Shown here piece by piece: positions 945 to 31,392 of a stretch of 36,423 nt of DNA (its first letter is position 1; the number at the start of each line of letters is the position of its first letter). The DNA is taken from NCBI GenBank assembly GCA_900321195.1, contig ONVG01000001.1, positions 1-36,423 on the forward strand, read 5' to 3'. This DNA comes from an uncultured Eubacteriales bacterium. GTDB lineage: Bacteria > Bacillota > Clostridia > Oscillospirales > Acutalibacteraceae. Position numbers and translations under genes: made by a program. The notes under the pieces were generated by a model that saw only the letters and a list, made by a program, of their open reading frames with translations, did no database searches and was not told the origin of the DNA.

Positions 945-1141
945 AAATGCCGCCCACTGAAACAGATGCTGCTGTTCAATTGCTTCGTGCTGTATAAGAA
1001 CGCCTTTATTCTTTCCTCTGCCGCTGTGAATTGCAGATCGTCAATAAAATCGCATAGCTGCGCATCTGTCATTTTCCTGACCTTTACCGCTGTGTCATGC
1101 TGCCTTTTCTCAAGAGGTGTCTTCCTGTAATTCTTCTTCAT
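788..1141 (-). CDS. hypothetical ORF; only about the first 45 codons look genuine, possibly joined to the VRR-NUC gene by a -1 frame change
   Basis: ORF overlaps the VRR-NUC gene by 157 nt. Its C-terminal part is Cys/Arg-rich, shadow-like sequence. Confidence 0.3.
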   Translation of the reverse strand: MKKNYRKTPLEKRQHDTAVKVRKMTDAQLCDFIDDLQFTAAEERIKAFLYSTKQLNSSICFSGRHLCPESTKSLNICTIFRTAEAATRKKQSTSKGRESEQECLILICRSQEKVITA

Positions 1142-2048
1142 TCGTTTTTCTCCTTCCGATAAAACTGTCTATGTATTCGTCATCATCAAACCAATCGTTC
1201 ATATCCCATTCGGACTCCTGGGAGTTTCTGTACATAACCAGTGATACATACCACTGCTGATTGAACCGATTTTGCCCGGTCACTATTTTCACGACCCTGT
1301 ATCCCCGATACCGCCGTTCCCAGTACTCCCTGTCTTCCTGATGAACAGTACCCATCAGCTCAACTCTGCGGCTTGTCAGCTTACCGTCTTTTATTTTTTC
1401 TTCCGGCTTTCTGAGATTACGTGAACAAACAAATTTTTTTGCCCCGGGCGGTGCGTAGGAATGATCCGCCTGCTTGACAAGGTAAGCGCCTATTTTTTCA
1501 GGTCCCCAGTAGTCAGGATCATACCTGTCAGCTTTGCGGGATATGCCCTTATTCCAGATACTTCTGTAATCTCTCCAGTCTCTTTCATATCCGCATCCGG
1601 ACAATATCAGATGGAAATGATATCCGCCCCGTTTTTTCGCTTCGATCGTGTAGATATATTTCAGCGGTTCTTCTGCCTTTCTGAGCTGTGCCCTGAGTTC
1701 CTTGTTTTTGGGTTCGGCTTTCAGCTTTGATCTCAGCTCTTCCGCTTTCCTTTCACGGAACGTCTTTATCCGCCGAAGGTAGTTAACTATATCCCGCTTG
1801 GCCTGCTCATACTCATCCGGTCTCTTATTCTCCGAATATGTCAGATGAATGATTACATCGCTTTCATCAAAATTTGCATTGAGCAGTCTGACCGCTCTCT
1901 TTTGCGCTTGCTTTTGATTGTATTTTGCCTGCTGCTCTGATGATACCTTCGACTTCGGACCTCTGAATATGTGCTTGCCGTCCCGTGTCACCGGATAGAT
2001 ATTCACTTCCAGCAGCTTCCCGGATTTTATCCTTTTCTCTCTTATCAT
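1110..2048 (-). CDS. HUH-superfamily Rep-like (rolling-circle type) replication initiator candidate
   Basis: Ordered motifs IIHLTYS (motif 1-like), YHFHLILS (HUH) and GAYLVKQ (Tyr motif), located in the early region downstream of the Cro-like gene. Confidence 0.5.
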   Translation of the reverse strand: MIREKRIKSGKLLEVNIYPVTRDGKHIFRGPKSKVSSEQQAKYNQKQAQKRAVRLLNANFDESDVIIHLTYSENKRPDEYEQAKRDIVNYLRRIKTFRERKAEELRSKLKAEPKNKELRAQLRKAEEPLKYIYTIEAKKRGGYHFHLILSGCGYERDWRDYRSIWNKGISRKADRYDPDYWGPEKIGAYLVKQADHSYAPPGAKKFVCSRNLRKPEEKIKDGKLTSRRVELMGTVHQEDREYWERRYRGYRVVKIVTGQNRFNQQWYVSLVMYRNSQESEWDMNDWFDDDEYIDSFIGRRKTNEEELQEDTS

Positions 2049-4163: not shown

Positions 4164-5276
4164 ATGGATCCGATAGTAATTTTCTTTGTCATTATAATTG
4201 TCGTTTCAGTAATAATTTCAATACTATATTACAGTGCAATTAATAATAACAATAATTCTCCGCCATCACAACCCAAATACACATCCTCTAAACCTCAATA
4301 TACACCTGACTATGAACATGAACTTGAATACAAAAAAAATAAAAGCGTTGATATATCGTACAATACAACACACAATATGCCAAGTACCTACATAATTGTT
4401 GACGTCCAGACTACAGGCTTGGATTATTTCAAGGATAGTATTCTTGAGATCACTGCTGAAAGATATGACGAAGGAATAAAACATGATGACTTCCATAGCT
4501 ATTGTAAATATACTAAACACATCCCCGATGAAGCGTTTGCGGTTAATAATATTTTTTCATCAGATGTAAACAACGCTCCTTCTTTACGTATTGTACTTAA
4601 CGAATTTCTGAACTACATTAAAGATTATCCTCTTTTAACATACAATGCAGAATTTGAAATGAGTTTTTTACAGTATAATTGTATCACTAAACTTAAAAAA
4701 CGTATAAACAACAATGTTATTAATGGACTTGAATTGAGTAGAGAAAACCTGCCCGATCTTCATGATCACAAGCTGTCTACTATTCAAAAATATTTCAACG
4801 TAGTAAAAGGTCCTAAACACTCATATAACAATTGTAAAACAATCAATCACTTGTACCACTATTGCATACAAAGAGAAGAATCAATCAGTAAATATGGAGT
4901 AGCATTTTCATCAGATCCTTGCGAGCTGAACGATTTAGAAGTTAATTATCTTAATGAATTTGTAAAAATCTGTGTCAGAAATAAAATCAAGAAATCCTCA
5001 CTTTCAATCAGAAAGAGTGGAAAATATCTTATTGTTATGCGCAATCAAATACCACTTATTAAGTTTAAGCTTAACGGAAAATTAAACTATTTTTTGATAG
5101 ATATACCTTATAATAAATTTATATCAGAATGTCATACGGAAATAGAATGTGCTTCCGGAAGCAGTAACGAAATAGGAATGACAAGAGTATTATCAACATC
5201 TCCGGAGCAAATGAACGAGTTTAAAGAATACATTTTTACATCAAAAACAAGAGTCTGGTCAACTCAATCATTTTGA
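4164..5276 (+). CDS. membrane-anchored DnaQ/DEDD-exonuclease-fold protein with degenerate catalytic motifs plus an unknown C-terminal domain
   Basis: N-terminal TM helix IVIFFVIIIVVSVIISILYY. Exo I-like VDVQTTGL (E to Q), Exo II-like YNAEFEMSFL (D to E), Exo III-like HSYNNC (D lost). Confidence 0.6.
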   Translation: MDPIVIFFVIIIVVSVIISILYYSAINNNNNSPPSQPKYTSSKPQYTPDYEHELEYKKNKSVDISYNTTHNMPSTYIIVDVQTTGLDYFKDSILEITAERYDEGIKHDDFHSYCKYTKHIPDEAFAVNNIFSSDVNNAPSLRIVLNEFLNYIKDYPLLTYNAEFEMSFLQYNCITKLKKRINNNVINGLELSRENLPDLHDHKLSTIQKYFNVVKGPKHSYNNCKTINHLYHYCIQREESISKYGVAFSSDPCELNDLEVNYLNEFVKICVRNKIKKSSLSIRKSGKYLIVMRNQIPLIKFKLNGKLNYFLIDIPYNKFISECHTEIECASGSSNEIGMTRVLSTSPEQMNEFKEYIFTSKTRVWSTQSF

Positions 5277-5283
5277 ATAATAT

Positions 5284-6087
5284 ATGAAAGAAAGAATTTT
5301 TGAAATAGTAAGTTCGCCTGACGAACCAAGCAAGCTCAGTAAAGCATTTGACATTTTTATAATCTGCCTGATAGTTTTGAATGTTATAACAGTAATAGCA
5401 GACACATTCAGTCTTCCTGAGTGGGCAAGAAACATCCTCTGGTGGATAGAAGTAGTATCTGTTGTGATCTTTACACTGGAGTACCTGCTGCGTATCTATA
5501 CAGCAGACCTTATGTTTCCCGAAATGAAGCCGTTCAGAGCAAGACTCAGATACATACGATCCTTTATGGCAGTGATAGATTTGCTTGCAATTCTGCCGTT
5601 TTATGTTCCATACATAATTCCTATTGATCTGCGTGTGCTGCGTATGCTGCGGATAATAAGACTGCTGAGAATATTCAAGATAAACCGCTATACAACGGCA
5701 TTATCAACAATTGCAGATGTATTCAAACGCAAAAGACACGAGCTTTTATCATCAATTGCAGTTGTATCAATGCTGATGATAATTGCCGCTGTCCTTATGT
5801 ACAATATAGAGAACGAAGCACAGCCGGAAGCCTTTGAGAATGCCTTTGCCGCTTTATGGTGGGCAGTAGCTACTCTGACTACTGTAGGATATGGAGATGT
5901 TTATCCGGTTACTGTTCTCGGGAAAATTCTGAGTGCAATTATTGCCCTTCTCGGTATCGGACTGGTAGCAGTACCGACAGGTATTATATCATCGGGTTTT
6001 GTTGAGAGCATGGAAGAAAAGCATAAAGCTCAGGAAGAACATGATAAAAAATGTTTTTGTCCCTATTGTGGGAAGAAATTGAAATAA
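5284..6087 (+). CDS. 6TM voltage-sensor-type potassium channel
   Basis: Selectivity filter TTVGYGD. S4-like segment RVLRMLRIIRLLRIFK with a basic residue every third position. Six hydrophobic segments. C-terminal CFCPYCG. Confidence 0.85.
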   Translation: MKERIFEIVSSPDEPSKLSKAFDIFIICLIVLNVITVIADTFSLPEWARNILWWIEVVSVVIFTLEYLLRIYTADLMFPEMKPFRARLRYIRSFMAVIDLLAILPFYVPYIIPIDLRVLRMLRIIRLLRIFKINRYTTALSTIADVFKRKRHELLSSIAVVSMLMIIAAVLMYNIENEAQPEAFENAFAALWWAVATLTTVGYGDVYPVTVLGKILSAIIALLGIGLVAVPTGIISSGFVESMEEKHKAQEEHDKKCFCPYCGKKLK

Positions 6088-6187: not shown

Positions 6188-6215
6188 GATAAAAACGCAA
6201 TAAGGAGTGATATTG

Positions 6216-7256
6216 ATGAAAGCTAAAAAATTACCATCCGGATCATGGAATGTGCAGGTATTTGTCGGCTATGATCAGAATGGAAAGAAAATACGCAAGA
6301 GCTTTACTGCGCCGACAAAGAAAGAAGCAGAATATCTTGCTGCAAGCTTTAAAGCTCACCATCAGGAAGTCACCAGAGACAGTTCTGCTATGACTCTGAG
6401 TGAAGCTATAGATAAGTACATTGAATTTAAGGGGGCTACTCTTTCCCCTTCAACTATCAGGGGTTACAATTATATTAAGAAAAAAGCATTTCCATCAATA
6501 ATGAACATAAAAATCAATAAGCTAACGGCACACAAGGTACAAGCAGCAGTTAACAAAGAAATTGGAACAAAAAAACCTAAAACAATAAAAAACGAGATTG
6601 TTCTGATACGTACTGTTGTAAAAATGTATGCTCCATCGGTCAATCTGTCTGATATTTCTTTACCGCAGCCAAAGAAATATATAGCTCAGGAGTTATCTTT
6701 GGAGCAGGTCAAACTGTTATTATCTGAGATAGTAAAAGATGAACAAGCTATTCCGTTATTGATAGCTATGTGTCTGGGGCTGAGAATTTCCGAAATAACA
6801 GCACTCAGATGGAGTGATTATGATACAGATAATATGGTTCTTTCTGTAGATAAGGCGATAGTCAGAGATATCACAAATGCAATGGTTCAAAAAGGAACCA
6901 AAACAGAGGAAAGCGAACGTACTATAGTTGTTCCGCCTTTTCTCCATAAACTAATGGTTAGAAACGCTCAAAAACCATCTGATCATATAATGACCAAATC
7001 TCAGTCGGCTGTAAGAGAACATCTTAAAAAAATATGTGATAATGTCGGTATTCCACATCTGAGAGTACATGATCTCAGACACATTAACGCATCTGTTATG
7101 CTTTATCTGAACATACCGGCAAAATATGCAATGGAACGTGGAGGATGGAGCGATATAAAAACAATGGACAAAATATATCAGTTCACATTTAAGGATCAGA
7201 AAAGAGTTGTCGATGATCGGATAAACGACTTTTTTTCTCAGGCTGTTGACCTGTGA
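6216..7256 (+). CDS. int: tyrosine integrase
   Basis: LRISEITALRWSD (Arg), HDLRHINASV (HxxR), GGWSDIKTMDKIYQF (Tyr). N-terminal arm-binding-like segment KLPSGSWNVQVFVGYD. AAGGAG RBS ahead of the ATG at 6216. Confidence 0.9.
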   Translation: MKAKKLPSGSWNVQVFVGYDQNGKKIRKSFTAPTKKEAEYLAASFKAHHQEVTRDSSAMTLSEAIDKYIEFKGATLSPSTIRGYNYIKKKAFPSIMNIKINKLTAHKVQAAVNKEIGTKKPKTIKNEIVLIRTVVKMYAPSVNLSDISLPQPKKYIAQELSLEQVKLLLSEIVKDEQAIPLLIAMCLGLRISEITALRWSDYDTDNMVLSVDKAIVRDITNAMVQKGTKTEESERTIVVPPFLHKLMVRNAQKPSDHIMTKSQSAVREHLKKICDNVGIPHLRVHDLRHINASVMLYLNIPAKYAMERGGWSDIKTMDKIYQFTFKDQKRVVDDRINDFFSQAVDL

Positions 7257-14066: not shown

Positions 14067-14101
14067 CACTATTCATTATTCACTATTCATTATTCATTAT
14101 T
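14067..14101. repeat. heptamer array (CAYTATT)x5 abutting the tape measure stop codon
   Basis: Units read CACTATT CATTATT CACTATT CATTATT CATTATT. The last unit overlaps the TAA stop. Confidence 0.9.
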
Positions 14102-17100
14102 TACAGGCTGACTATTGCTTTAAGGAACTGCTGAGCCTGTTTTTGTGTCAGAGCCGACCCTCTGACAGCTTCAAAGTTCTGAGTAACGTTGTTATTGTTA
14201 ATGATCTGCTGCGTTGACAGAGTCCCGCTTGCTTTTGCGAGAAGGTAGGAAAAGTTTTCAAGCGTAGTATTAAGGTTTTTCATAGCGGCAGTATTTTTGT
14301 CTATCTCATCATTAGCCTTGTTCTGGATATCAAGCTTTTTCTGTTCCATCCTTCTCTGGTAGTCGGCTTCTGCCTGTTCGTTAAGTATCTCCTGCCGCCG
14401 CTGTTCAAGCGAAAGCCTGCTGGTCTCATTGTCGTCGTGCATATATTTGAGCTGTAGGTTAATAGCGTCCAGCTCTTTTTTCCTGCTGTCGTCTTCCTGC
14501 TTCTGCCTTCGCTTCTCAAGCTGTTCGTCTATCTCTTTGACCTGCCTGTCAGCACCCGCTTTTATAGCGTCATTCAGATCATTGAGCTTTTCGACCTGCC
14601 CGTTAATCAGTTTTGTATACGCTGCCAACGCATACTCCTGCGCTTTTTTAGCGTTTTCGTTCTGTTTTTGCAGCTGTGCGTCCGCTAACTTGTCTGTAAG
14701 GTTCTTGAGCTTGAGCCTGATGCTGTAGGATTCGTCAGCGGTAAGCTGTTCCTGACGGAGTATCTTTTCATACTCGGCTTTAAGCTCATTGTCGTTTATT
14801 TTGCCTATCTGATGAACACGCTCAACAAGACTTAAACGTGCGGCGGCACTGGTGTCTCCCGTGCCGATTTCGTCCATCCAGCCCCATGTCCACTGCACGC
14901 TGTCGTTTCCTGCGCTTGTCTGAGTCGGATTGTAGTTGTTGTTGGTGTTATCGTTTCCGCCGTAATTGTTTACGCCGAAGTTTTTCAGTGACTCAATGGC
15001 TTTGTTGTAGGCGTCGATCTTATCCGTACCGTTGTTGAACTCGCCGTTAAGCTCTGCAAGCTGATCTTTTGCATTGCCGGTAAGAGTTATAAGGGTCTTG
15101 TAGCTGTCCATTGACGTCAGCTTTAAATTTTTCAGAACCCGGAGATAGTTTTCGTAAGTCCTTATCTGATCCCTCAGTTTATCCATGAGTTTTTCTCTTT
15201 TGTTGTTTTCTTCTTGTACTGCGTCCCGCGCACTTTCAAGAGTCAACCGAAGCTCATCTTTTTTGAGGTTAAAAAGCTTTTCAACTATTTCTTTCTGAGC
15301 TTCAAGACTTCCGTTAGCGTTTATTATATCCGCCGCATATTCGGGATATTTTTCGGCAAGCTGTAAAAGCGCGTCAATACTCAGCTGCTGACCGTCACTC
15401 AGAGACTTGTACGTATTTGCAAGACTGTTCATCTCGCTCCTGACGCTTGCGGACTGCTTTGCGATATCAGAAAGCTTTTCACTGAGTGTCTGAGCATCCC
15501 ACGCTGCAGTTTTATACTCAGCCTGCGCAGACTTAACGTCTTCTTTAAGCCCTACCTGTTCGGTCCTGAGCTGCGCCAGCTTTTCTTTGGCTTCTTCAAG
15601 CTGCTGACCTTTAATTATAGCGTCCTCGTCTGTTATATCAGGCTTGTTGAGTTCCTTTCTCAGTCTTTCGATTTCATCCTGAGTATTTTTGATCTCGGTC
15701 CTGTTATCCTCAAGAGCCTTGTTTGCGTTTGTCAGCCTTTCTTGTAAATAATCTGCCGCCTCTCCCGTATCACGGAAAAGTTCATAAAAGCCTTTCAGGT
15801 CATACCCCTCTTCACCGTTCAGCATCTTATCAGCATACGCTTGAACATCATCCACAGCGTCCCCGACTTCTTCGATCTTGCCCTTGACTCCGTCCAAAGC
15901 TGCGCCTGATGAATTAGTAGCCGCCTTTGCGTTTTCCGTATATGTAACAGCTTCGTCAATTTTTCCGCTGTAATAGTCAACTGCCTTTGCAGCATCAATA
16001 GCAGCGTTTTTCAGTGCCGTAACTTCTTCTACAACATCCTTGGTGTCATAGTTGTATTCGTTGCGGTTGAGGTTTCCTTTTTCATCGTACAGATCCGGAT
16101 ATTTTTCCCGAACTTCCTGAAGCTTCATTCGGTAAGCTTCTTCCGCCTTCAGCTGAGTTTCATACGCAGATGTCAGTCCTGCCTTTGCCGCTTCCATCTG
16201 AGCTTCAAGCTTCATCATTTCGACGGTCTCTTTTATCTTGTCTGCTAAACTCTGATACTCCCCCGCCGTATTCTTGACTTCGTCTGCTTCAAGTCCCAGC
16301 TTGCTTTGCAGTGTATCAGCGATTGAAGCTAATCTGTTCTTTTCCTCACTTGTAAGGTCTGCTTTAACTCTGAGCTTTTCATATTCAGCTCCTAAAGACT
16401 GTATGTATATAACTTCACTTTCAGCGGAAGCAGCACTCGCAGCAGACGCTTCCGAAGCGGTTTTTAACGCTTCGTTCACTTTCTCTGTTGCATCAGCTGA
16501 GTTTCTTGCAGCAATTGAATACGCCGTTAATCCGGTAGTCAATGCTCCGAAAAGTCCTATAACTACACCTACCGGATTGGAATTCATAGCGGTATTAAGA
16601 GCGATCTGACTTGCTGTTTCTTTGTCCGTTGCCATCTTCAGTGCAGACACAGCCGAGCATAAACTGTTAATAAGGGATCCAATAGATAAACCTATTTTGT
16701 ACCCCGCCAACGCACCTGCCGCCCCTGCGACTGCTTCTTTGTGCTTAACGACCCACATAACAAGATTTTTGAGATCCTCTGCGCCCTTACGGATGGTAAC
16801 CCCCCATGACTTCATAACGGTTTCAAGCTCTCCCGACTGCGCCATAGCGTTGACCTCGTCAAGCAGATCGTCAGCCACTTCAAGAAGTCCTTCCACAGCA
16901 GGGGTCATCTGAGAAGCCGTCAGCCGCTGTAAAGAATTGCTTTTAGAGATAAGACTGTCTATTTCGTCGTTGAATTTGTTAAGTCCGTCAAGCTGATCCT
17001 GAGATAGTATAAGCCCTGCCTTTTCCGCTTCATCGCCGATAGCCTTGAGCGCATCCGCGCCGCCCATGATAAGCGGGTTAAGCTGCTGAGCGGATTTGCC

Positions 17101-17916
17101 GAAGATCTCCATCGCGAGGGCATCCCGCTCCGTTTCGTTCCCTACTTTGCCGAGTGCTTCAATGACATCATAGAAAACTTCCTCACGGTCTTTCAGCTGT
17201 CCGGAACTGTCGAGTATAGATACATTCAGCTTATCGAAGCTTTCCGCAGCCGCCCCTGTACCGTTCTCAGCTGACGCAGCCATATTTTTGGTCAGCTTAG
17301 TCAGACTTCCGCTGAGCGTATCCATAGAAACATCAATAAGCTGAGTTGCATATTCAAACTTTTGAAGTTCTGAAGTAGATATTCCGGTGGTTTTAGACAG
17401 AGTATTCATACTGTCCGCCCACTGCGCCGCCTGCCTGCCGTAAGATACCATACCGGCGACTGCCGCTGTACCTGCTGCCGCAAGCCCCGCAAGCTCAGAA
17501 CCTAAGTCTTTGGCATGGGTCTTGGCGTCATCCATAGAAGTCTTGAACTTCTCCATAGCATTTTTCTGTTCTTCGATCTTCTTTTTGGTGCTGTCTATTT
17601 CATTTTTAAGCCCTGCCTGAGCGATTTTCAGATCATCGAGTTTTTTCTTAGCCTCTCTGATCACATCATTAAGCTCTTCCTGCCTTTTCTTCTGCCCTTC
17701 GGTAGCCTTGCCGTTTTTCTGAATTTCCTTTTCAAGTAATGCTAATTCCTTTTCAGCGTCTTTGATTTCCTTTGACGCTGCTTTTTGTTCTTTAGTGTTG
17801 TTCTTGTATTCCTTTTGAAGTTTTCTGAGCGACTCCGTCATCCTGTCGATACCGGCTTCAAATGACTTTGTTCCCGCCCCGAAATTCGTCACATAAGACC
17901 TTCCGCTCTCCGCCAT
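14101..17916 (-). CDS. tail tape measure protein
   Basis: 1271 aa, long coiled-coil regions, central Ala/Gly-rich TM-like segments, located after the chaperone gene. Confidence 0.9.
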   Translation of the reverse strand: MAESGRSYVTNFGAGTKSFEAGIDRMTESLRKLQKEYKNNTKEQKAASKEIKDAEKELALLEKEIQKNGKATEGQKKRQEELNDVIREAKKKLDDLKIAQAGLKNEIDSTKKKIEEQKNAMEKFKTSMDDAKTHAKDLGSELAGLAAAGTAAVAGMVSYGRQAAQWADSMNTLSKTTGISTSELQKFEYATQLIDVSMDTLSGSLTKLTKNMAASAENGTGAAAESFDKLNVSILDSSGQLKDREEVFYDVIEALGKVGNETERDALAMEIFGKSAQQLNPLIMGGADALKAIGDEAEKAGLILSQDQLDGLNKFNDEIDSLISKSNSLQRLTASQMTPAVEGLLEVADDLLDEVNAMAQSGELETVMKSWGVTIRKGAEDLKNLVMWVVKHKEAVAGAAGALAGYKIGLSIGSLINSLCSAVSALKMATDKETASQIALNTAMNSNPVGVVIGLFGALTTGLTAYSIAARNSADATEKVNEALKTASEASAASAASAESEVIYIQSLGAEYEKLRVKADLTSEEKNRLASIADTLQSKLGLEADEVKNTAGEYQSLADKIKETVEMMKLEAQMEAAKAGLTSAYETQLKAEEAYRMKLQEVREKYPDLYDEKGNLNRNEYNYDTKDVVEEVTALKNAAIDAAKAVDYYSGKIDEAVTYTENAKAATNSSGAALDGVKGKIEEVGDAVDDVQAYADKMLNGEEGYDLKGFYELFRDTGEAADYLQERLTNANKALEDNRTEIKNTQDEIERLRKELNKPDITDEDAIIKGQQLEEAKEKLAQLRTEQVGLKEDVKSAQAEYKTAAWDAQTLSEKLSDIAKQSASVRSEMNSLANTYKSLSDGQQLSIDALLQLAEKYPEYAADIINANGSLEAQKEIVEKLFNLKKDELRLTLESARDAVQEENNKREKLMDKLRDQIRTYENYLRVLKNLKLTSMDSYKTLITLTGNAKDQLAELNGEFNNGTDKIDAYNKAIESLKNFGVNNYGGNDNTNNNYNPTQTSAGNDSVQWTWGWMDEIGTGDTSAAARLSLVERVHQIGKINDNELKAEYEKILRQEQLTADESYSIRLKLKNLTDKLADAQLQKQNENAKKAQEYALAAYTKLINGQVEKLNDLNDAIKAGADRQVKEIDEQLEKRRQKQEDDSRKKELDAINLQLKYMHDDNETSRLSLEQRRQEILNEQAEADYQRRMEQKKLDIQNKANDEIDKNTAAMKNLNTTLENFSYLLAKASGTLSTQQIINNNNVTQNFEAVRGSALTQKQAQQFLKAIVSL

Positions 17917-17935
17917 ACTGCCACCACCCTTTTTT

Positions 17936-17968
17936 TAATGAATAATTAATAATGAATAATGAATAATG
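17936..17968. repeat. heptamer array, opposite orientation (AATRAAT-type units, about 4.7 copies), just 5' of the tape measure RBS
   Basis: TAATGAATAATTAATAATGAATAATGAATAATG. The identical 33-mer recurs at 25066 and 27083. Confidence 0.9.
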
Positions 17969-18047
17969 TTTGTAGCTCTGACTTTTTCCGCCGAATCCTT
18001 CGTCACCCTTGAGCGACCCCTGCGTTATTCCCGGTACAGGCACGCGC

Positions 18048-18076
18048 AAAAAAATAAAGCATCCGCTAACGGACGC
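18048..18076 (-). terminator. rho-independent terminator (minus strand)
   Basis: Minus strand reads GCGUCCG UUAG CGGAUGC followed by UUUAUUUUUUU. Confidence 0.6.
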
Positions 18077-18105
18077 TTGACAATACAGGTGTGATGTTGT
18101 AAAAT
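18077..18105 (+). promoter_or_regulatory. near-consensus promoter for a short plus-strand RNA
   Basis: TTGACA (18077-18082), 17-nt spacer, TAAAAT (18100-18105). Confidence 0.6.
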
Positions 18106-18111
18106 AAAGAC

Positions 18112-18208
18112 AAAGAGAGTACCGCACAGTAGGCGGTTTGCTCCCCAAGATTGGTATTAAGAAAACACCGCAGCTTTGGAAGGGCTTGGCGGTGTTTTCT
18201 TATTTTTT
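18112..18208 (+). ncRNA. candidate antisense sRNA (about 97 nt), putative type I antitoxin
   Basis: Bounded by the promoter above and a terminator: stem GAAAACACCGC/GCGGTGTTTTC at 18161-18199, then a T-run to 18208. No ORF. Antisense to the 3' region of the minus-strand peptide transcript. Confidence 0.5.
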
Positions 18209-18227
18209 ATGTAAAAAACTAAGAAAA

Positions 18228-18323
18228 TTACTTTCTCTTACTATTATCTCTAACGATATTGTAAACGAAAGTGATAACATGGACTAAAGCCACTATGCAA
18301 GCGCATACATCGCTGATCGTCAT
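18228..18323 (-). CDS. 31-aa hydrophobic peptide, type I toxin-like (Hol-Tox/Fst-like pattern)
   Basis: MTISDVCACIVALVHVITFVYNIVRDNSKRK. SD AAAGGGGG lies 8 nt upstream and can pair in the hairpin CCCCUU-AGUA-AAGGGG. Has its own promoter. Confidence 0.5.
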   Translation of the reverse strand: MTISDVCACIVALVHVITFVYNIVRDNSKRK

Positions 18324-18404
18324 AGCTATCGACCCCCTTTACTAAGGGGAACAAACCGCCTTTGCCGGCAAAAGCCGGCACCGCACTGTACAGTACTCGT
18401 GTTT

Positions 18405-18433
18405 ATTCTAACACCACATCTCGACCATGTCAA
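18405..18433 (-). promoter_or_regulatory. near-consensus promoter for the small peptide gene
   Basis: Minus strand reads TTGACA, 17-nt spacer, TGtTAGAAT (extended -10). Confidence 0.6.
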
Positions 18434-18468: not shown

Positions 18469-18502
18469 CAGCTCTGAGCTCATAGCCCTTAGCTCTGAGC
18501 TA
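18469..18502. repeat. stop-adjacent AGCTCTGAGCT palindrome pair
   Basis: CAGCTCTGAGCT...CCCTTAGCTCTGAGCTA, ending in the TAG stop of the chaperone gene. Near-identical copy at 21167-21200. Confidence 0.8.
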
Positions 18503-19048
18503 CAAACTATCATATCTTTTAACGATAACGGGTTTGTCTTTTTGTCCCTTGACTTCAAGGTACTTGTCGATCCTGTCGTCGATCTCTGCCCGTGTGCTTG
18601 ACCAGAACTCTTCCTCAGGACGCTTTATTATGTCGCAGTAAAACGCTCTCAAATGTCCGTAACCCGTATAGTAGTTGTGTTCCTCATCGTTTCCCGCAGC
18701 CGCCCTGCTTTTGCTGAAGCTTTCCGAGATCGCCATCATAAGCTCCAAGCGAAGGCGGGGCAGGTCGCATATACCGACCGCCGCCCCCAGCTCAGACAGC
18801 AGCGGCTTGACTGCTGTAAAATCCCTGTTAGAAACACATTCACGGTTTTCGGGCAGGTCACAGAATCCTGCTCTTAAAAGCTGTAAGCAGTCTTCGATCT
18901 GCCACTTGTCATACTCTGTCTGAAGTATTTTTTCAATGCTTTTATACTCCACTTCAAGGTAAAGCAACGCGTTAAGAGAGAACCTGATCTTAAACTCTCT
19001 CCCCCCGATATGTACAACGCTTGACTTTCTTATAAGACTGCTTAACAT
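18500..19048 (-). CDS. tail assembly chaperone (start refined)
   Basis: Lies between the major tail and tape measure genes. VVHIGGREFKIRFSLNALLYLE resembles gpG-type chaperones. AAGGGG RBS ahead of the ATG at 19048. Confidence 0.55.
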   Translation of the reverse strand: MLSSLIRKSSVVHIGGREFKIRFSLNALLYLEVEYKSIEKILQTEYDKWQIEDCLQLLRAGFCDLPENRECVSNRDFTAVKPLLSELGAAVGICDLPRLRLELMMAISESFSKSRAAAGNDEEHNYYTGYGHLRAFYCDIIKRPEEEFWSSTRAEIDDRIDKYLEVKGQKDKPVIVKRYDSL

Positions 19049-19066
19049 AAAACCAAACCCCTTTTT

Positions 19067-19097
19067 AATAGTGTGAAGAGTGAAGTGTGAAGATAAG
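19067..19097. repeat. degenerate 7-nt repeat (GTGAAG-type) just 5' of the chaperone RBS
   Basis: AATAGTGTGAAGAGTGAAGTGTGAAGATAAG. Confidence 0.6.
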
Positions 19098-19128
19098 AAT
19101 TTTTTGAAAATTTGCAAATTCTTTCAAA

Positions 19129-19206: not shown

Positions 19207-20145
19207 TCAGACTACAACCGTTGCTGTGATAGTCTTTGTTGCTGTGAGTCCGTTAGCGTCCTTAGCAACGATTTTAAAATAATAAACGGTGTCACTTACA
19301 ACAGTTACTTCCCTTGTAGCAGTGGTGTCGCTGCTGTCCTCAGCAACGGCAGTCCAGCTGTCGCTTCCCTGCGCTTTAAGATAATAGCTGTACTTGTAAG
19401 GCGCAGTGCCGCCCGATGCGCTTCCGCTGAATGTAACAGTACTTCCGCTGTTAATAGTGCCGCCGTCAAGTACAGGCAAACTATTAACTATTATTGCGGA
19501 ATTCGTGTTATACAAACCATCTCTTCCAACGAAATCTCCATCCGTAAACCAGTTCTCGATAAATGCCGCGCCTTCCTCAGTGTTGGGATTAACACCCTTT
19601 GCTTCATAGATTTTACCCGTCAGGTTCTCGTTAGTGGAGAAGGTATTGAAGAAAGTAAACGGAACAGAGATAGTAGAGAACGTAGCCTGTCCCGACTCAT
19701 TCACCTGATCTACAGTTTTTTCGTATGGTGAGAACTTGCACCTAAGGAACTTGTACAGGTTAATGAGCCCTTCTTCGCTATCAGTATCAGTAATAAACGC
19801 AAGTCGTACATAAGGCGCAATATCCCTGCTGCCCACATTGGTAATATTGATAACAGAATTATTCAGAATCACACCGCCTGCAGTATTCCCGAGAATCATT
19901 GACCTTTCGCCCGGTGTCAGCTCCGCCAGTCCCAGCGTACCCTGTCCGTTGGGAATACCGGTATACGAACCTACCGTAACACCGTCGGAGTTCACGAACT
20001 GCGTATTAGCGTTAAGCGACCAGGACGCGGACTTTGCGCGTTCCCCGAAAGCGTAAGCCTTACCGCACTGTTCAGTCTTGCTGTTTGTAAACGGCCATAC
20101 TACAATATTTCTGACATTCACGTCATGATTTACAAGAACATTCAT
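19207..20145 (-). CDS. major tail protein with C-terminal Ig-like domain
   Basis: 312-aa ORF in the expected position. C-terminus VTFSGSASGGTAPYKYSYYLK...YYFKIVAKDANGLTATKTITATVV is Ig/PKD-like. Confidence 0.7.
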   Translation of the reverse strand: MNVLVNHDVNVRNIVVWPFTNSKTEQCGKAYAFGERAKSASWSLNANTQFVNSDGVTVGSYTGIPNGQGTLGLAELTPGERSMILGNTAGGVILNNSVINITNVGSRDIAPYVRLAFITDTDSEEGLINLYKFLRCKFSPYEKTVDQVNESGQATFSTISVPFTFFNTFSTNENLTGKIYEAKGVNPNTEEGAAFIENWFTDGDFVGRDGLYNTNSAIIVNSLPVLDGGTINSGSTVTFSGSASGGTAPYKYSYYLKAQGSDSWTAVAEDSSDTTATREVTVVSDTVYYFKIVAKDANGLTATKTITATVVV

Positions 20146-20220
20146 TATAATTTCCCCCTTTTTTTCAATCAGGAATCAGGAATTATTATCACAAACAATA
20201 CCTTTTTCCCTTCCGTAATT

Positions 20221-20252
20221 CACTATTCATTATTCATTGTTCACTATTCACT
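20221..20252. repeat. heptamer array (CAYTRTT, about 4.6 copies) overlapping the stop of 20234..20584
   Basis: CACTATT CATTATT CATTGTT CACTATT CACT. Confidence 0.85.
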
Positions 20253-21084: not shown

Positions 21085-21166
21085 ATCATCACGCACCTTT
21101 TTATTAATGTGGAATTAGGAAAGTGGAATCAGCTTCGCAGCCAAAAGCATAACCCCCGAGCCTCCA

Positions 21167-21200
21167 CAGCTCTGAGCTCTGAGCCCTTAGCTCTGAGCTA
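21167..21200. repeat. stop-adjacent AGCTCTGAGCT palindrome cluster
   Basis: CAGCTCTGAGCTCTGAGCCCTTAGCTCTGAGCTA, ending in the TAG stop of 21198..21512. Confidence 0.8.
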
Positions 21201-21512
21201 TCCGCTATTCACTAAGACGAGCTTGACGAGCAGTTCATTAAGAGAAGTCCCGACGGAGTCTATCCTGTAATCACTGCCGTCATTAAGAACGACATGAGTA
21301 GGAGAAAGACTGCCGAACTCAGCCCGCCACATATGGAGAGTTTTGTCAACGCTCATTCCTGCCGCTCCGAGCCGTGAACGGAAAGAAGCGGAAACTTCCT
21401 CAAGATGTCCCCATACGGCAGCTTCGGCTTGTACTTCATACCCGCCGCCGTATCCCCCTTCCGGGACTCTGCGCTGAAGGATAACACGGTCATTCATTTC
21501 CATTGTTAACAT
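21198..21512 (-). CDS. head closure / head-tail adaptor protein
   Basis: 104-aa ORF in the canonical position. Confidence 0.55.
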   Translation of the reverse strand: MLTMEMNDRVILQRRVPEGGYGGGYEVQAEAAVWGHLEEVSASFRSRLGAAGMSVDKTLHMWRAEFGSLSPTHVVLNDGSDYRIDSVGTSLNELLVKLVLVNSG

Positions 21513-23084: not shown

Positions 23085-23163
23085 GTCATAAATTGTCTGT
23101 ATTCGTACAAAATACAGGCGAACTCCCCGCCTGCGCCCCGGTCACTCCGCCGAAAGGCTTTTT

Positions 23164-23196
23164 TAATGAATAATTAATAATTAATAATGAATAATG
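23164..23196. repeat. heptamer array (AATRAAT type)
   Basis: TAATGAATAATTAATAATTAATAATGAATAATG. Confidence 0.9.
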
Positions 23197-23249: not shown

Positions 23250-23288
23250 CACTATTCACTATTCACTATTCACTATTCATTATTCACT
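23250..23288. repeat. heptamer array (CAYTATT, about 5.6 copies) overlapping the protease stop
   Basis: CACTATT x4, CATTATT, CACT. Inverted relative to 23164-23196, 53 nt away. Confidence 0.9.
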
Positions 23289-25065: not shown

Positions 25066-25098
25066 TAATGAATAATTAATAATGAATAATGAATAATG
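25066..25098. repeat. heptamer array just 5' of the portal RBS
   Basis: Identical 33-mer to 17936-17968. Confidence 0.9.
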
Positions 25099-27082: not shown

Positions 27083-27115
27083 TAATGAATAATTAATAAT
27101 GAATAATGAATAATG
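27083..27115. repeat. heptamer array just 5' of the RBS of 26805..27074
   Basis: Identical 33-mer to 17936-17968. Confidence 0.9.
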
Positions 27116-28602: not shown

Positions 28603-28628
28603 TAATGAATAATTAATAATGAATAATG
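28603..28628. repeat. heptamer array just 5' of the RBS of 28284..28583
   Basis: TAATGAATAATTAATAATGAATAATG. Confidence 0.9.
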
Positions 28629-31360: not shown

Positions 31361-31392
31361 CATTATTCATTATTCACTATTCATTATTCACT
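31361..31392. repeat. heptamer array (CAYTATT, about 4.6 copies) overlapping the ParB-like stop
   Basis: CATTATT CATTATT CACTATT CATTATT CACT. Confidence 0.9.

Follow-up and report, generated by a model that had tools for sequence, protein, structure and literature searches.

A convergent gene pair in the tail operon

The window analysed here comprises positions 1 to 36,423 of contig ONVG01000001.1 and contains a temperate siphophage or prophage; its host is a Clostridia-like Firmicute, and it is not a Bacillus phage. In the late operon, between the genes for the tail chaperone and the tape measure, lies a cassette that encodes a 31-aa hydrophobic peptide on the minus strand and a putative antisense RNA on the plus strand (Table 1). 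An initial annotation, made from the letters of the window, had described it as a self-contained type I toxin-antitoxin (TA)-like cassette. Sequence comparison supports this description: the cassette is absent from relatives of the phage, and its elements are kept in a diverged copy elsewhere.

The open reading frame (ORF) for the peptide was recovered as annotated, with a hydrophobic core of 19 residues (mean Kyte-Doolittle value 2.4) and a basic tail, RDNSKRK, of net charge +3. A Shine-Dalgarno (SD) sequence, AAGGGGG, is found 9 nt upstream of the AUG. The ORF is thus of the kind expected of a type I toxin, being small (under 60 aa), hydrophobic and equipped with a ribosome binding site.

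Both promoters named in the initial annotation were found again in a consensus scan, and they are the only two matches at 11 of 12 positions in the 20 kb of the late region. The same scan found no minus-strand promoter between the cassette and the tape-measure gene. The plus-strand promoter would drive a noncoding RNA of ~97 nt that ends at a strong terminator and is antisense to the 3’ region of the peptide mRNA; promoter, terminator and complementarity are all present as proposed. This predicted RNA has neither AUG nor SD sequence and contains no ORF. Modelled at 99 nt, it folds as a 5’ stem-loop followed by the terminator (z = -4.1). It lies wholly within the 3’ untranslated region (UTR) of the peptide mRNA, to which it is fully complementary, and it covers the 3’ arm of the long-range helix described below. 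A second trait of type I systems, a cis-encoded antisense RNA with its own promoter and terminator, is therefore present at the sequence level.

The two transcription units meet at a bidirectional terminator, whose T-tract is strong in the direction of the plus-strand RNA; for the minus strand it offers a weaker tract, UUUUCUU. The second minus-strand terminator of the initial annotation was also located, abutting the -35 element of the antisense promoter. Minus-strand transcripts probably extend past the bidirectional hairpin to this second terminator, because the strand-specific pairing of the mRNA ends is conserved (the main evidence) and so is the second terminator; a shorter peptide mRNA of ~240 nt, ending at the bidirectional terminator, may be made as well.

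Table 1. Positions of the cassette elements and of the surrounding features in the window.
Feature	Position	Strand	Remarks
Peptide-mRNA promoter, TTGACA-17-TGtTAGAAT	18405..18433	-	11/12 consensus positions, TG extension
Predicted long peptide mRNA, ~350 nt	18047..18398	-	from ~G18398 to the T-tract of the second terminator; both ends predicted
5’ arm 1 of long-range helix (GAGUACUGUACAGU)	18385..18398	-	inverted repeat I9; pairs with 18117-18130 in the minimum-free-energy structure
Leader hairpin, UGCCGGC-UUUU-GCCGGCA	18363..18380	-	-14.7 kcal/mol
5’ arm 2 of long-range helix (GGCGGUUUGUUCCCC)	18346..18361	-	inverted repeat I2, 94% complementary; pairs with 18131-18146
Anti-SD/SD hairpin, UCCCCUU-AGUA-AAGGGGG	18333..18350	-	-10.8 kcal/mol
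31-aa ORF (MTISDVCACIVALVHVITFVYNIVRDNSKRK)	18228..18323	-	one predicted transmembrane helix and basic tail
Bidirectional terminator hairpin	18158..18202	both	perfect 14-nt arms, 18158-18171 and 18189-18202
3’ arm of long-range helix (GGGGAGCAAACCGCCUACUGUGCGGUACUC)	18117..18146	-	complement of the 5’ part of the antisense RNA
Predicted antisense RNA, ~97 nt	18112..18210	+	5’ stem-loop, linker, terminator
Antisense-RNA promoter, TTGACA-17-TAAAAT	18077..18105	+	11/12 consensus positions
Second intrinsic terminator	18047..18078	-	9-bp stem (18078..18057) and T-tract UUUAUUUUUUU
GCUCAGAGCU repeat element after chaperone stop codon	18455..18502	-	flank, outside cassette
Start-associated heptamer leader of tape-measure gene	17931..17974	-	flank, outside cassette
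Chaperone ORF	18500..19117	-	205 aa, six-frame call; start probably Met24, giving 18500..19048
Major tail	19207..20145	-	
Tape measure	14101..17916	-	
Tyrosine integrase	6207..7256		
Heptamer arrays	14067-14105, 17937-17968, 20214-20252, 23165-23196, 23250-23288, 25067-25098, 27084-27115, 28604-28628, 31361-31392		

Predicted folding of the peptide mRNA

Folding of the ~350-nt mRNA agreed with the initial annotation: the 349-nt minus-strand RNA reaches -139 kcal/mol (z = -9.9 against 100 shuffles), and in its minimum-free-energy structure, as in the consensus structure, the first 53 nt pair with the RNA’s own 3’ UTR in a 29-bp helix. The annotated complementarity of leader and 3’ UTR is thus present as two inverted repeats (Table 1). 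The remark that their mismatches pair as G-U on the minus-strand RNA alone also holds, since the helix arms mismatch at three positions, each of them G.U on that RNA and C.A on the opposite strand. The arm duplex is worth -52 kcal/mol on the peptide-mRNA strand of the window and -39 on the opposite strand; in the two other alleles of the cassette (see below) the values are -47.5 and -44.7 versus -36 and -36. In each of the three alleles, the helix thus gains 8-13 kcal/mol on the peptide-mRNA strand. Cognate 5’/3’ pairs outdo most heterologous pairs, the cognate pair of the window by 9-12 kcal/mol.

Sequestration of the SD in the hairpin CCCCUU-AGUA-AAGGGG, as annotated, is likewise predicted by folding, and the hairpin covaries in homologs. 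An inert primary transcript with an occluded SD, the third trait of type I systems, would follow from this fold. The anti-SD CCCC is included in 5’ arm 2 of the long-range helix, and the 3’ arm itself carries an SD-like GGGGAG (GGGAGG and GGGAGA in the homologous cassettes on contigs L058 and L059, respectively), a copy that may compete with the real SD for the anti-SD of the leader. By partition-function modelling, the unpaired probability of the SD is ~0.1 in the free long mRNA, in the short mRNA and in the antisense-blocked mRNA. A switch in SD accessibility on antisense binding was not reproduced, the modelled SD being ~90% paired in every state, and direct pairing of the antisense RNA with the SD would be limited to the 4-5 bp found possible by hand pairing.

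A diverged copy of the cassette in another phage

An exhaustive HMMER search of 1.84 billion representatives with the 31-aa peptide returned one match, P0007 (E = 2e-8), the single member of its cluster, which in its last 31 residues (MTISEICACIVALVNVISFVYDIIKDNSKRK) shares 77% identity with the window peptide. P0007 is encoded on two contigs (L058 and L059) of another phage that has only the holin and lysin (84% aa identity) in common with the window. Its cassette is placed between a gene of 122 aa and that for a 649-aa tail-region protein, and is co-oriented with the late genes. The two peptides have the same length and differ by 7 conservative replacements, accompanied by 5 synonymous changes (ratio of nonsynonymous to synonymous substitution rates, dN/dS, 0.3); nucleotide identity between the lineages is 88% in the ORF vs. 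65-81% elsewhere in the module.

The control elements are kept as well. In L058 and L059 the peptide promoter retains both hexamers, the 17-nt spacing and the TG with a different spacer sequence, and the antisense promoter reads TTGACA-17-TAAAAT in L058 and TTGACA-17-TAGAAT in L059, again with diverged spacers; both promoters match 11 of 12 consensus positions in all three alleles. The SD hairpin covaries, from UCCCCUU/AAGGGGG to CCUCCCU/AGGGAGG in both contigs, which also still have a leader hairpin, CCGGA-UU-UCCGG. The 9-bp stem of the second terminator persists, with both sides altered in 3 of its base pairs, and the bidirectional terminator combines an invariant stem with a variable loop across the three alleles. 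Pairing of arm 1 is recovered in the RNAalifold consensus with U.G to U-A changes, and pairing of the 3’ arm with the leader is kept in 3/3 alleles through G.U to A-U changes and single bulges. The homologous peptide mRNAs fold with z = -10.4 and -9.6, and the homologous antisense RNAs have the same two-hairpin shape (z = -3.9 and -5.2). On the evidence of these alignments, the cassette is a conserved, mobile module.

The two homologous contigs also differ from each other in an uneven way. Their flanking ~1.1 kb is 99.7% identical; among the 41 differences in the first 1,247 aligned nt, 38 fall within 136 nt (L058 359-494, 28% divergence). This segment, which begins just past the stop codon of the toxin and ends just short of the antisense -35 element, contains the 3’ UTR, the antisense RNA and the antisense promoter spacer; 5’ UTR, ORF and second terminator show 100% identity between the contigs. 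The antisense segment of the window is a third allele, 70-80% identical to each of the others. The antisense/3’ UTR segment thus appears to have been exchanged, or to have evolved ~100-fold faster than its surroundings, with leader pairing kept. This suggests, speculatively, distinct antitoxin specificity types. It is a tentative and rather doubtful idea that the antisense segment is an exchangeable specificity determinant, altered by recombination or diversifying selection, that serves RNA incompatibility or warfare between sibling prophages. If it is correct, the antisense RNA of one phage would not be able to neutralise a close relative’s toxin message, and such warfare would possibly be engaged when a superinfecting phage transcribes the toxin within its late operon. 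The localised swap provides a testable handle on the evolution of antitoxin specificity.

Absence of the cassette from related phages

Chaperone homologs were traced to their own contigs, on which the next gene is the tape measure where identifiable. In relatives with 70, 67, 59, 49 and 44% chaperone identity, the gaps to the next gene are 135, 83, 72, 102 and 17 nt, and the cassette is missing from all five groups. In the 70% relative (L043-45), the GCUCAGAGCU element still follows the chaperone stop codon and the AT-rich leader still precedes the tape measure, with only ~70 nt between the two elements. Because the relatives leave only such short gaps, the ~390-nt core is an addition in the lineage of the window; G+C is ~0.41 at the insert vs. 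0.47-0.52 in the flanks. The cassette is therefore an extra unit with its own promoter and terminator that is absent at the same junction in relatives, which is what defines a moron.

The initial annotation had raised the possibility that the region is a conserved coding extension of the chaperone, for example a frameshift product. This was checked and is ruled out by the 17-135-nt gaps of the relatives, in which no coding extension follows the chaperone. The chaperone-like gene is followed there directly by the tape measure, which leaves no space for a -1 frameshift extension in the usual G/GT arrangement. The N-terminus of the window chaperone is probably overextended in the 205-aa call, since its homologs have 179-184 aa.

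In the cassette-free gap of L043 (2770-2906), an apparent hairpin and then a T-run (AGCUUGGCAUUUCAGGCU UUUUUCUU) were read by eye after the chaperone. Partial termination ahead of the tape-measure gene may thus be native to this group of phages. The initial annotation had considered it unusual that the late transcript must read through terminators in this place: two terminators are indeed present, and the eye-read hairpin and T-run of the L043 gap speak against calling them unusual.

Searches for further copies

A second copy of the cassette was not found in the window, and blastn of the gap against phages gave no match. With tblastn (E up to 10), the peptide produced one chance match, to a Rhizobium phage, among 50,697 phage records that included Clostridioides phages, and nothing real among 72,556 plasmids. 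Exact and degenerate DNA patterns revealed no further copies in IMG/VR and GTDB genomes. A 15-mer scan of IMG/VR (40 loci) and an 18-mer scan of Joint Genome Institute (JGI) metagenomes (3 loci) turned up chance matches with no cassette around them. Neither the peptide nor the RNAs matched the family models of bsrG/SR4, txpA/RatA, Fst, Hok, Ldr or TisB.

Type I TA modules almost entirely escape annotation, and few are known from phages of gut Clostridia. The cassette illustrates this blind spot: its 31-aa ORF is nearly absent from predicted proteins and is represented, among 15 billion of them, only via one mis-extended gene call.

Phage context and intergenic repeats

The late genes of the phage are on the minus strand and encode terminase, portal, protease, capsid, connectors, major tail, chaperone, tape measure, a Sipho_Gp37-like protein, holin and a CHAP/amidase lysin. 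Terminases of Paenibacillus and Clostridium/Clostridioides phages share 55-60% identity with its large terminase, and relatives of the tape measure occur in phages of gut Oscillospirales and Butyrivibrio. The presence of integrase, holin and lysin genes fits a temperate context. The same phage was found in several public assemblies (L042, L063, L064) at 99.8-100% identity, with the cassette in every one. Exact-protein look-ups returned no record for the 205-aa chaperone ORF or the tape-measure protein and, for the major tail, copies of the same phage only. Window positions 4164-6087 (+), beside the integrase, encode a 370-aa exonuclease of the RNase T family and a 267-aa ion channel protein of the voltage-gated type (Ion_trans, E = 1.5e-41); both genes may be cargo for lysogenic conversion, or belong to the host where it borders on the prophage. 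A Rep-like ORF of the rolling-circle type spans 1110..2048.

The intergenic regions around the cassette are rich in repeats. A ~45-nt repeat (UAGCUCAGAGCUAAGGGCU..GAGCUCAGAGCUGUGG.GGCUCG) has a second copy at 21157-21199, after the stop of the gene at 21198..21512, and L043, the relative that lacks the cassette, also has it after the chaperone; the motif AGCTCTGAGCT has 13 matches in the window vs. 0.7 expected. Arrays of a 7-nt unit (AATGAAT/AATAGTG) are present in many intergenic regions in both orientations (29 matches vs. 0.1 expected). The heptamer leader of the tape-measure gene recurs before the genes at 23159, 25061, 27072 and 28594. In late-mRNA sense, the form UAGUGAAUAGUGAAUAAUG..., which has stops in all three frames, follows stop codons, and its reverse complement ACAAACAUUAUUCAUUAUUCAUUAUUAAUUAUUCAUUAAAAAAGG stands immediately upstream of the SD in at least five genes. 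The two forms stand on either side of gene blocks (portal and protease, capsid to connector, tape measure) and can pair with -30 to -38 kcal/mol on the late-mRNA strand, which is 4-15 kcal/mol stronger than on the other. Long-range mRNA stems, RNase III processing sites, and translation insulators or enhancers are possible roles of the arrays, which are restricted to this phage lineage and partly present in the 70% relative.

A 14-nt inverted repeat that flanks the gap (17968-17981/18494-18507) was considered as a mobile-element boundary and rejected, because it is explained by two of these phage-wide intergenic repeat families. Several public contigs of this phage end in or near the repeat-rich intergenic regions: L001 ends inside the chaperone gene, and L042 and L064 end inside the heptamer leader. 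Short-read assemblies thus seem to be broken by the repeats, which may explain the absence of the cassette from IMG/VR.

Proposed mechanism and alternative explanations

We consider it probable, at about 65%, that the cassette is an insert of the moron type (18047-18433, ~390 nt) bearing a type I TA-like pair with the construction of bsrG/SR4. It would then be a new toxin and RNA sequence family of a known kind, i.e., a bsrG/SR4-like type I module carried as a moron. In a lysogen, both promoters, which are of the sigma-A type, would fire independently of the repressed late operon. The peptide mRNA would fold during its synthesis, with the upstream CCCC trapping the SD, and transcripts that pass the weak side of the bidirectional terminator would end at the second terminator. 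The 3’ arm could then pair with the 5’ leader (-45 to -52 kcal/mol) and produce a closed, nuclease-resistant and translationally inert RNA. The ~97-nt antisense RNA would pair perfectly with the 3’ UTR, 3’ arm and terminator hairpin included, in a duplex of >90 bp that would be a substrate for ribonuclease III (RNase III). By analogy with the action of SR4 on bsrG mRNA, this duplex would strip the 3’ arm off the leader, and the freed anti-SD would lock the SD. Upon loss of the prophage or of the antisense RNA, the stable mRNA would be translated, the peptide would enter the membrane and growth would stop. During lytic growth, the late transcript would read through both terminators to the tape measure, as with other morons. 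The module is likely to serve prophage maintenance and/or competitor exclusion; stabilisation of the prophage, the function of prophage type I systems of Clostridioides difficile (PMC7699646), is the most likely role, with competitor exclusion as the alternative.

Several points weigh against this interpretation. The translation switch on antisense binding is taken from SR4 by analogy and is not demonstrated in silico, because of the uniformly paired SD in the modelled states. Read-through of the bidirectional terminator by the peptide mRNA has just two grounds, the strand-specific pairing and the conserved second terminator. The comparison draws on two independent lineages (three alleles), so that covariation and dN/dS derive from few substitutions. 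With E values up to 10 allowed, the peptide found no relevant match in Pfam, NCBIfam or PADLOC. The RNAs had none in Rfam at gathering score, and the sub-threshold matches in E-value mode, of which OrzO-P was the best (25 bits vs. a cut-off of 60), were all driven by the terminator. Finally, a non-toxic membrane exclusion protein, HK97 gp15, is encoded at the same junction (PMC3594210).

Since HK97 gene 15 encodes a small inner-membrane protein, the main rival is a moron with a benign peptide of this sort, for example a gp15-like agent of superinfection exclusion, the level of which the antisense RNA merely tunes. This is clearly the less probable explanation, even though the shared junction (PMC3594210), the possession of a promoter and terminator of its own, the absence from relatives and the lack of a toxin family match all agree with it. 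Against it stands the layered and conserved control of the peptide (occluded SD, 5’-3’ helix, dedicated antisense RNA with a consensus promoter), as layered control of expression is a hallmark of genes with harmful products (PMC6733600, PMC3834814). Also, a 31-aa single-helix peptide with a KRK tail fits the type I toxins (PMC7699646).

It is quite improbable that the cassette is an RNA-level device of the late operon that sets the ratio of tail-tube/chaperone to tape-measure transcripts, with the small ORF incidental. Such a device could make use of the two terminators that the late transcript meets before the tape measure, and would be in keeping with the lack of a minus-strand promoter downstream of the cassette, with the hairpin and T-run read by eye after the chaperone of cassette-free L043 and with the other strand-specific intergenic RNA pairings of the phage. 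However, the ORF is the best-conserved part of the module, with conservative replacements and a fixed length; the same module stands at a different junction in L058 and L059, and the relatives manage without it; and attenuation has no need of two consensus promoters. The comparative data already refute a chance constellation or a degenerate remnant, such as a chaperone frameshift extension in decay: single promoter- or terminator-like matches are common in AT-rich intergenic DNA, as judged from shuffle means, but the late region has only two 11/12 promoter matches in 20 kb, the fold has z ~ -10, each element is conserved individually in a context that is unrelated, and relatives have no coding extension of the chaperone.

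Comparison with known systems

The par system (Fst/RNA II) of the Enterococcus plasmid pAD1 consists of convergent RNAs with a common bidirectional terminator and a toxin of ~33 aa with a charged tail. Repeats at both 5’ ends make its RNAs complementary there. In the cassette, by contrast, the repeats are inverted in the DNA, so that the RNA 5’ ends are alike and not complementary; no complementary 5’ repeats covering the toxin ribosome binding site were found, and the peptide has no Fst family match.

In the hok/sok and aapA/IsoA systems of Gram-negative bacteria, 5’-3’ end pairing locks the full-length mRNA and local anti-SD hairpins act during transcription, features that the cassette is predicted to share (PMC6733600). 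The antitoxins of hok/sok and aapA/IsoA bind a 3’-processed mRNA in its 5’ region, and it is the 3’ end that sequesters the SD (PMC6733600). In the cassette, unlike in hok/sok, the antisense RNA would target the 3’ arm and the SD would be trapped locally. Its complementarity is confined to the 3’ UTR, and the leader has no conserved overlapping (mok-like) ORF.

Among Clostridia, the systems of the temperate phages phiCD630-1 and phiCD630-2 (CD0977.1/RCd11 etc.) resemble the cassette in their toxins, which have a hydrophobic N-terminal part and a positive tail, and in their antisense antitoxins; the toxins, of 34-47 aa, stabilise the prophage (PMC7699646). These modules occupy prophage extremities, whereas the cassette is in the tail operon. 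No similarity to the CD0956.2-type toxin, the type found in all C. difficile phages, was detected by tblastn of the phage collection at E up to 10.

The location of the cassette has a precedent in the original moron, HK97 gene 15, which is inserted at the same chaperone/tape-measure junction (PMC3594210); a position amid the tail operon is therefore not unusual, contrary to the initial annotation. HK97 gp15 blocks DNA entry in a manner dependent on the tail and tape measure (PMC3594210). Morons typically bring a promoter and a terminator of their own, and those of lambdoid phages are, like the cassette, absent from relatives, lower in G+C and coding for a small membrane protein (PMC3594210). 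Beyond what is described for HK97 gene 15, the cassette would have a convergent antisense RNA gene and an inert-mRNA fold; the cited source makes no mention of an antisense RNA. The cassette thereby joins the classic chaperone/tape-measure moron site with RNA-controlled toxins.

The initial annotation had likened the 5’-3’ pairing to that of hok; the closest mechanistic parallel is bsrG/SR4, together with bsrE/SR5 (PMC3834814). Type I systems of Bacillus subtilis prophages have toxins of 29-59 aa and antitoxins of 100-222 nt (PMC6562991). The bsrG/SR4 and bsrE/SR5 pairs (SPbeta and P6) are prophage-borne like the cassette, with convergent genes that overlap at their 3’ ends (PMC3834814, PMC6562991), and the cassette peptide is similar to their toxins of 30-38 aa, which combine a hydrophobic helix with a basic C-terminus. 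Structure probing of bsrG mRNA has placed nt 1-35 and nt 232-262 opposite each other in helix P1, with the SD in a GC stem of 4 bp; SR4, by binding to the 3’ part, releases the 5’ arm and lengthens the SD helix to 8 bp, which blocks translation, and it also triggers decay (PMC3834814). The same architecture is predicted for the cassette: a 5’/3’ closing helix, an SD in a short GC stem and an antisense RNA complementary to the 3’ arm.

The two systems differ in several respects. No similarity of peptide or RNA sequence is detectable between them. The cassette antisense RNA, at ~97 nt, is wholly inside the 3’ UTR, whereas bsrG-type antitoxins have 163-180 nt. Unlike bsrG/SR4, the cassette has a shared bidirectional terminator and a second one downstream, has an SD-like copy in the 3’ arm and belongs to a Clostridia-like host rather than to Bacillus. 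The bsrG/SR4 design would thus be reproduced here independently, without sequence relatives, a recurrence that suggests a convergent or very old solution in Firmicutes.

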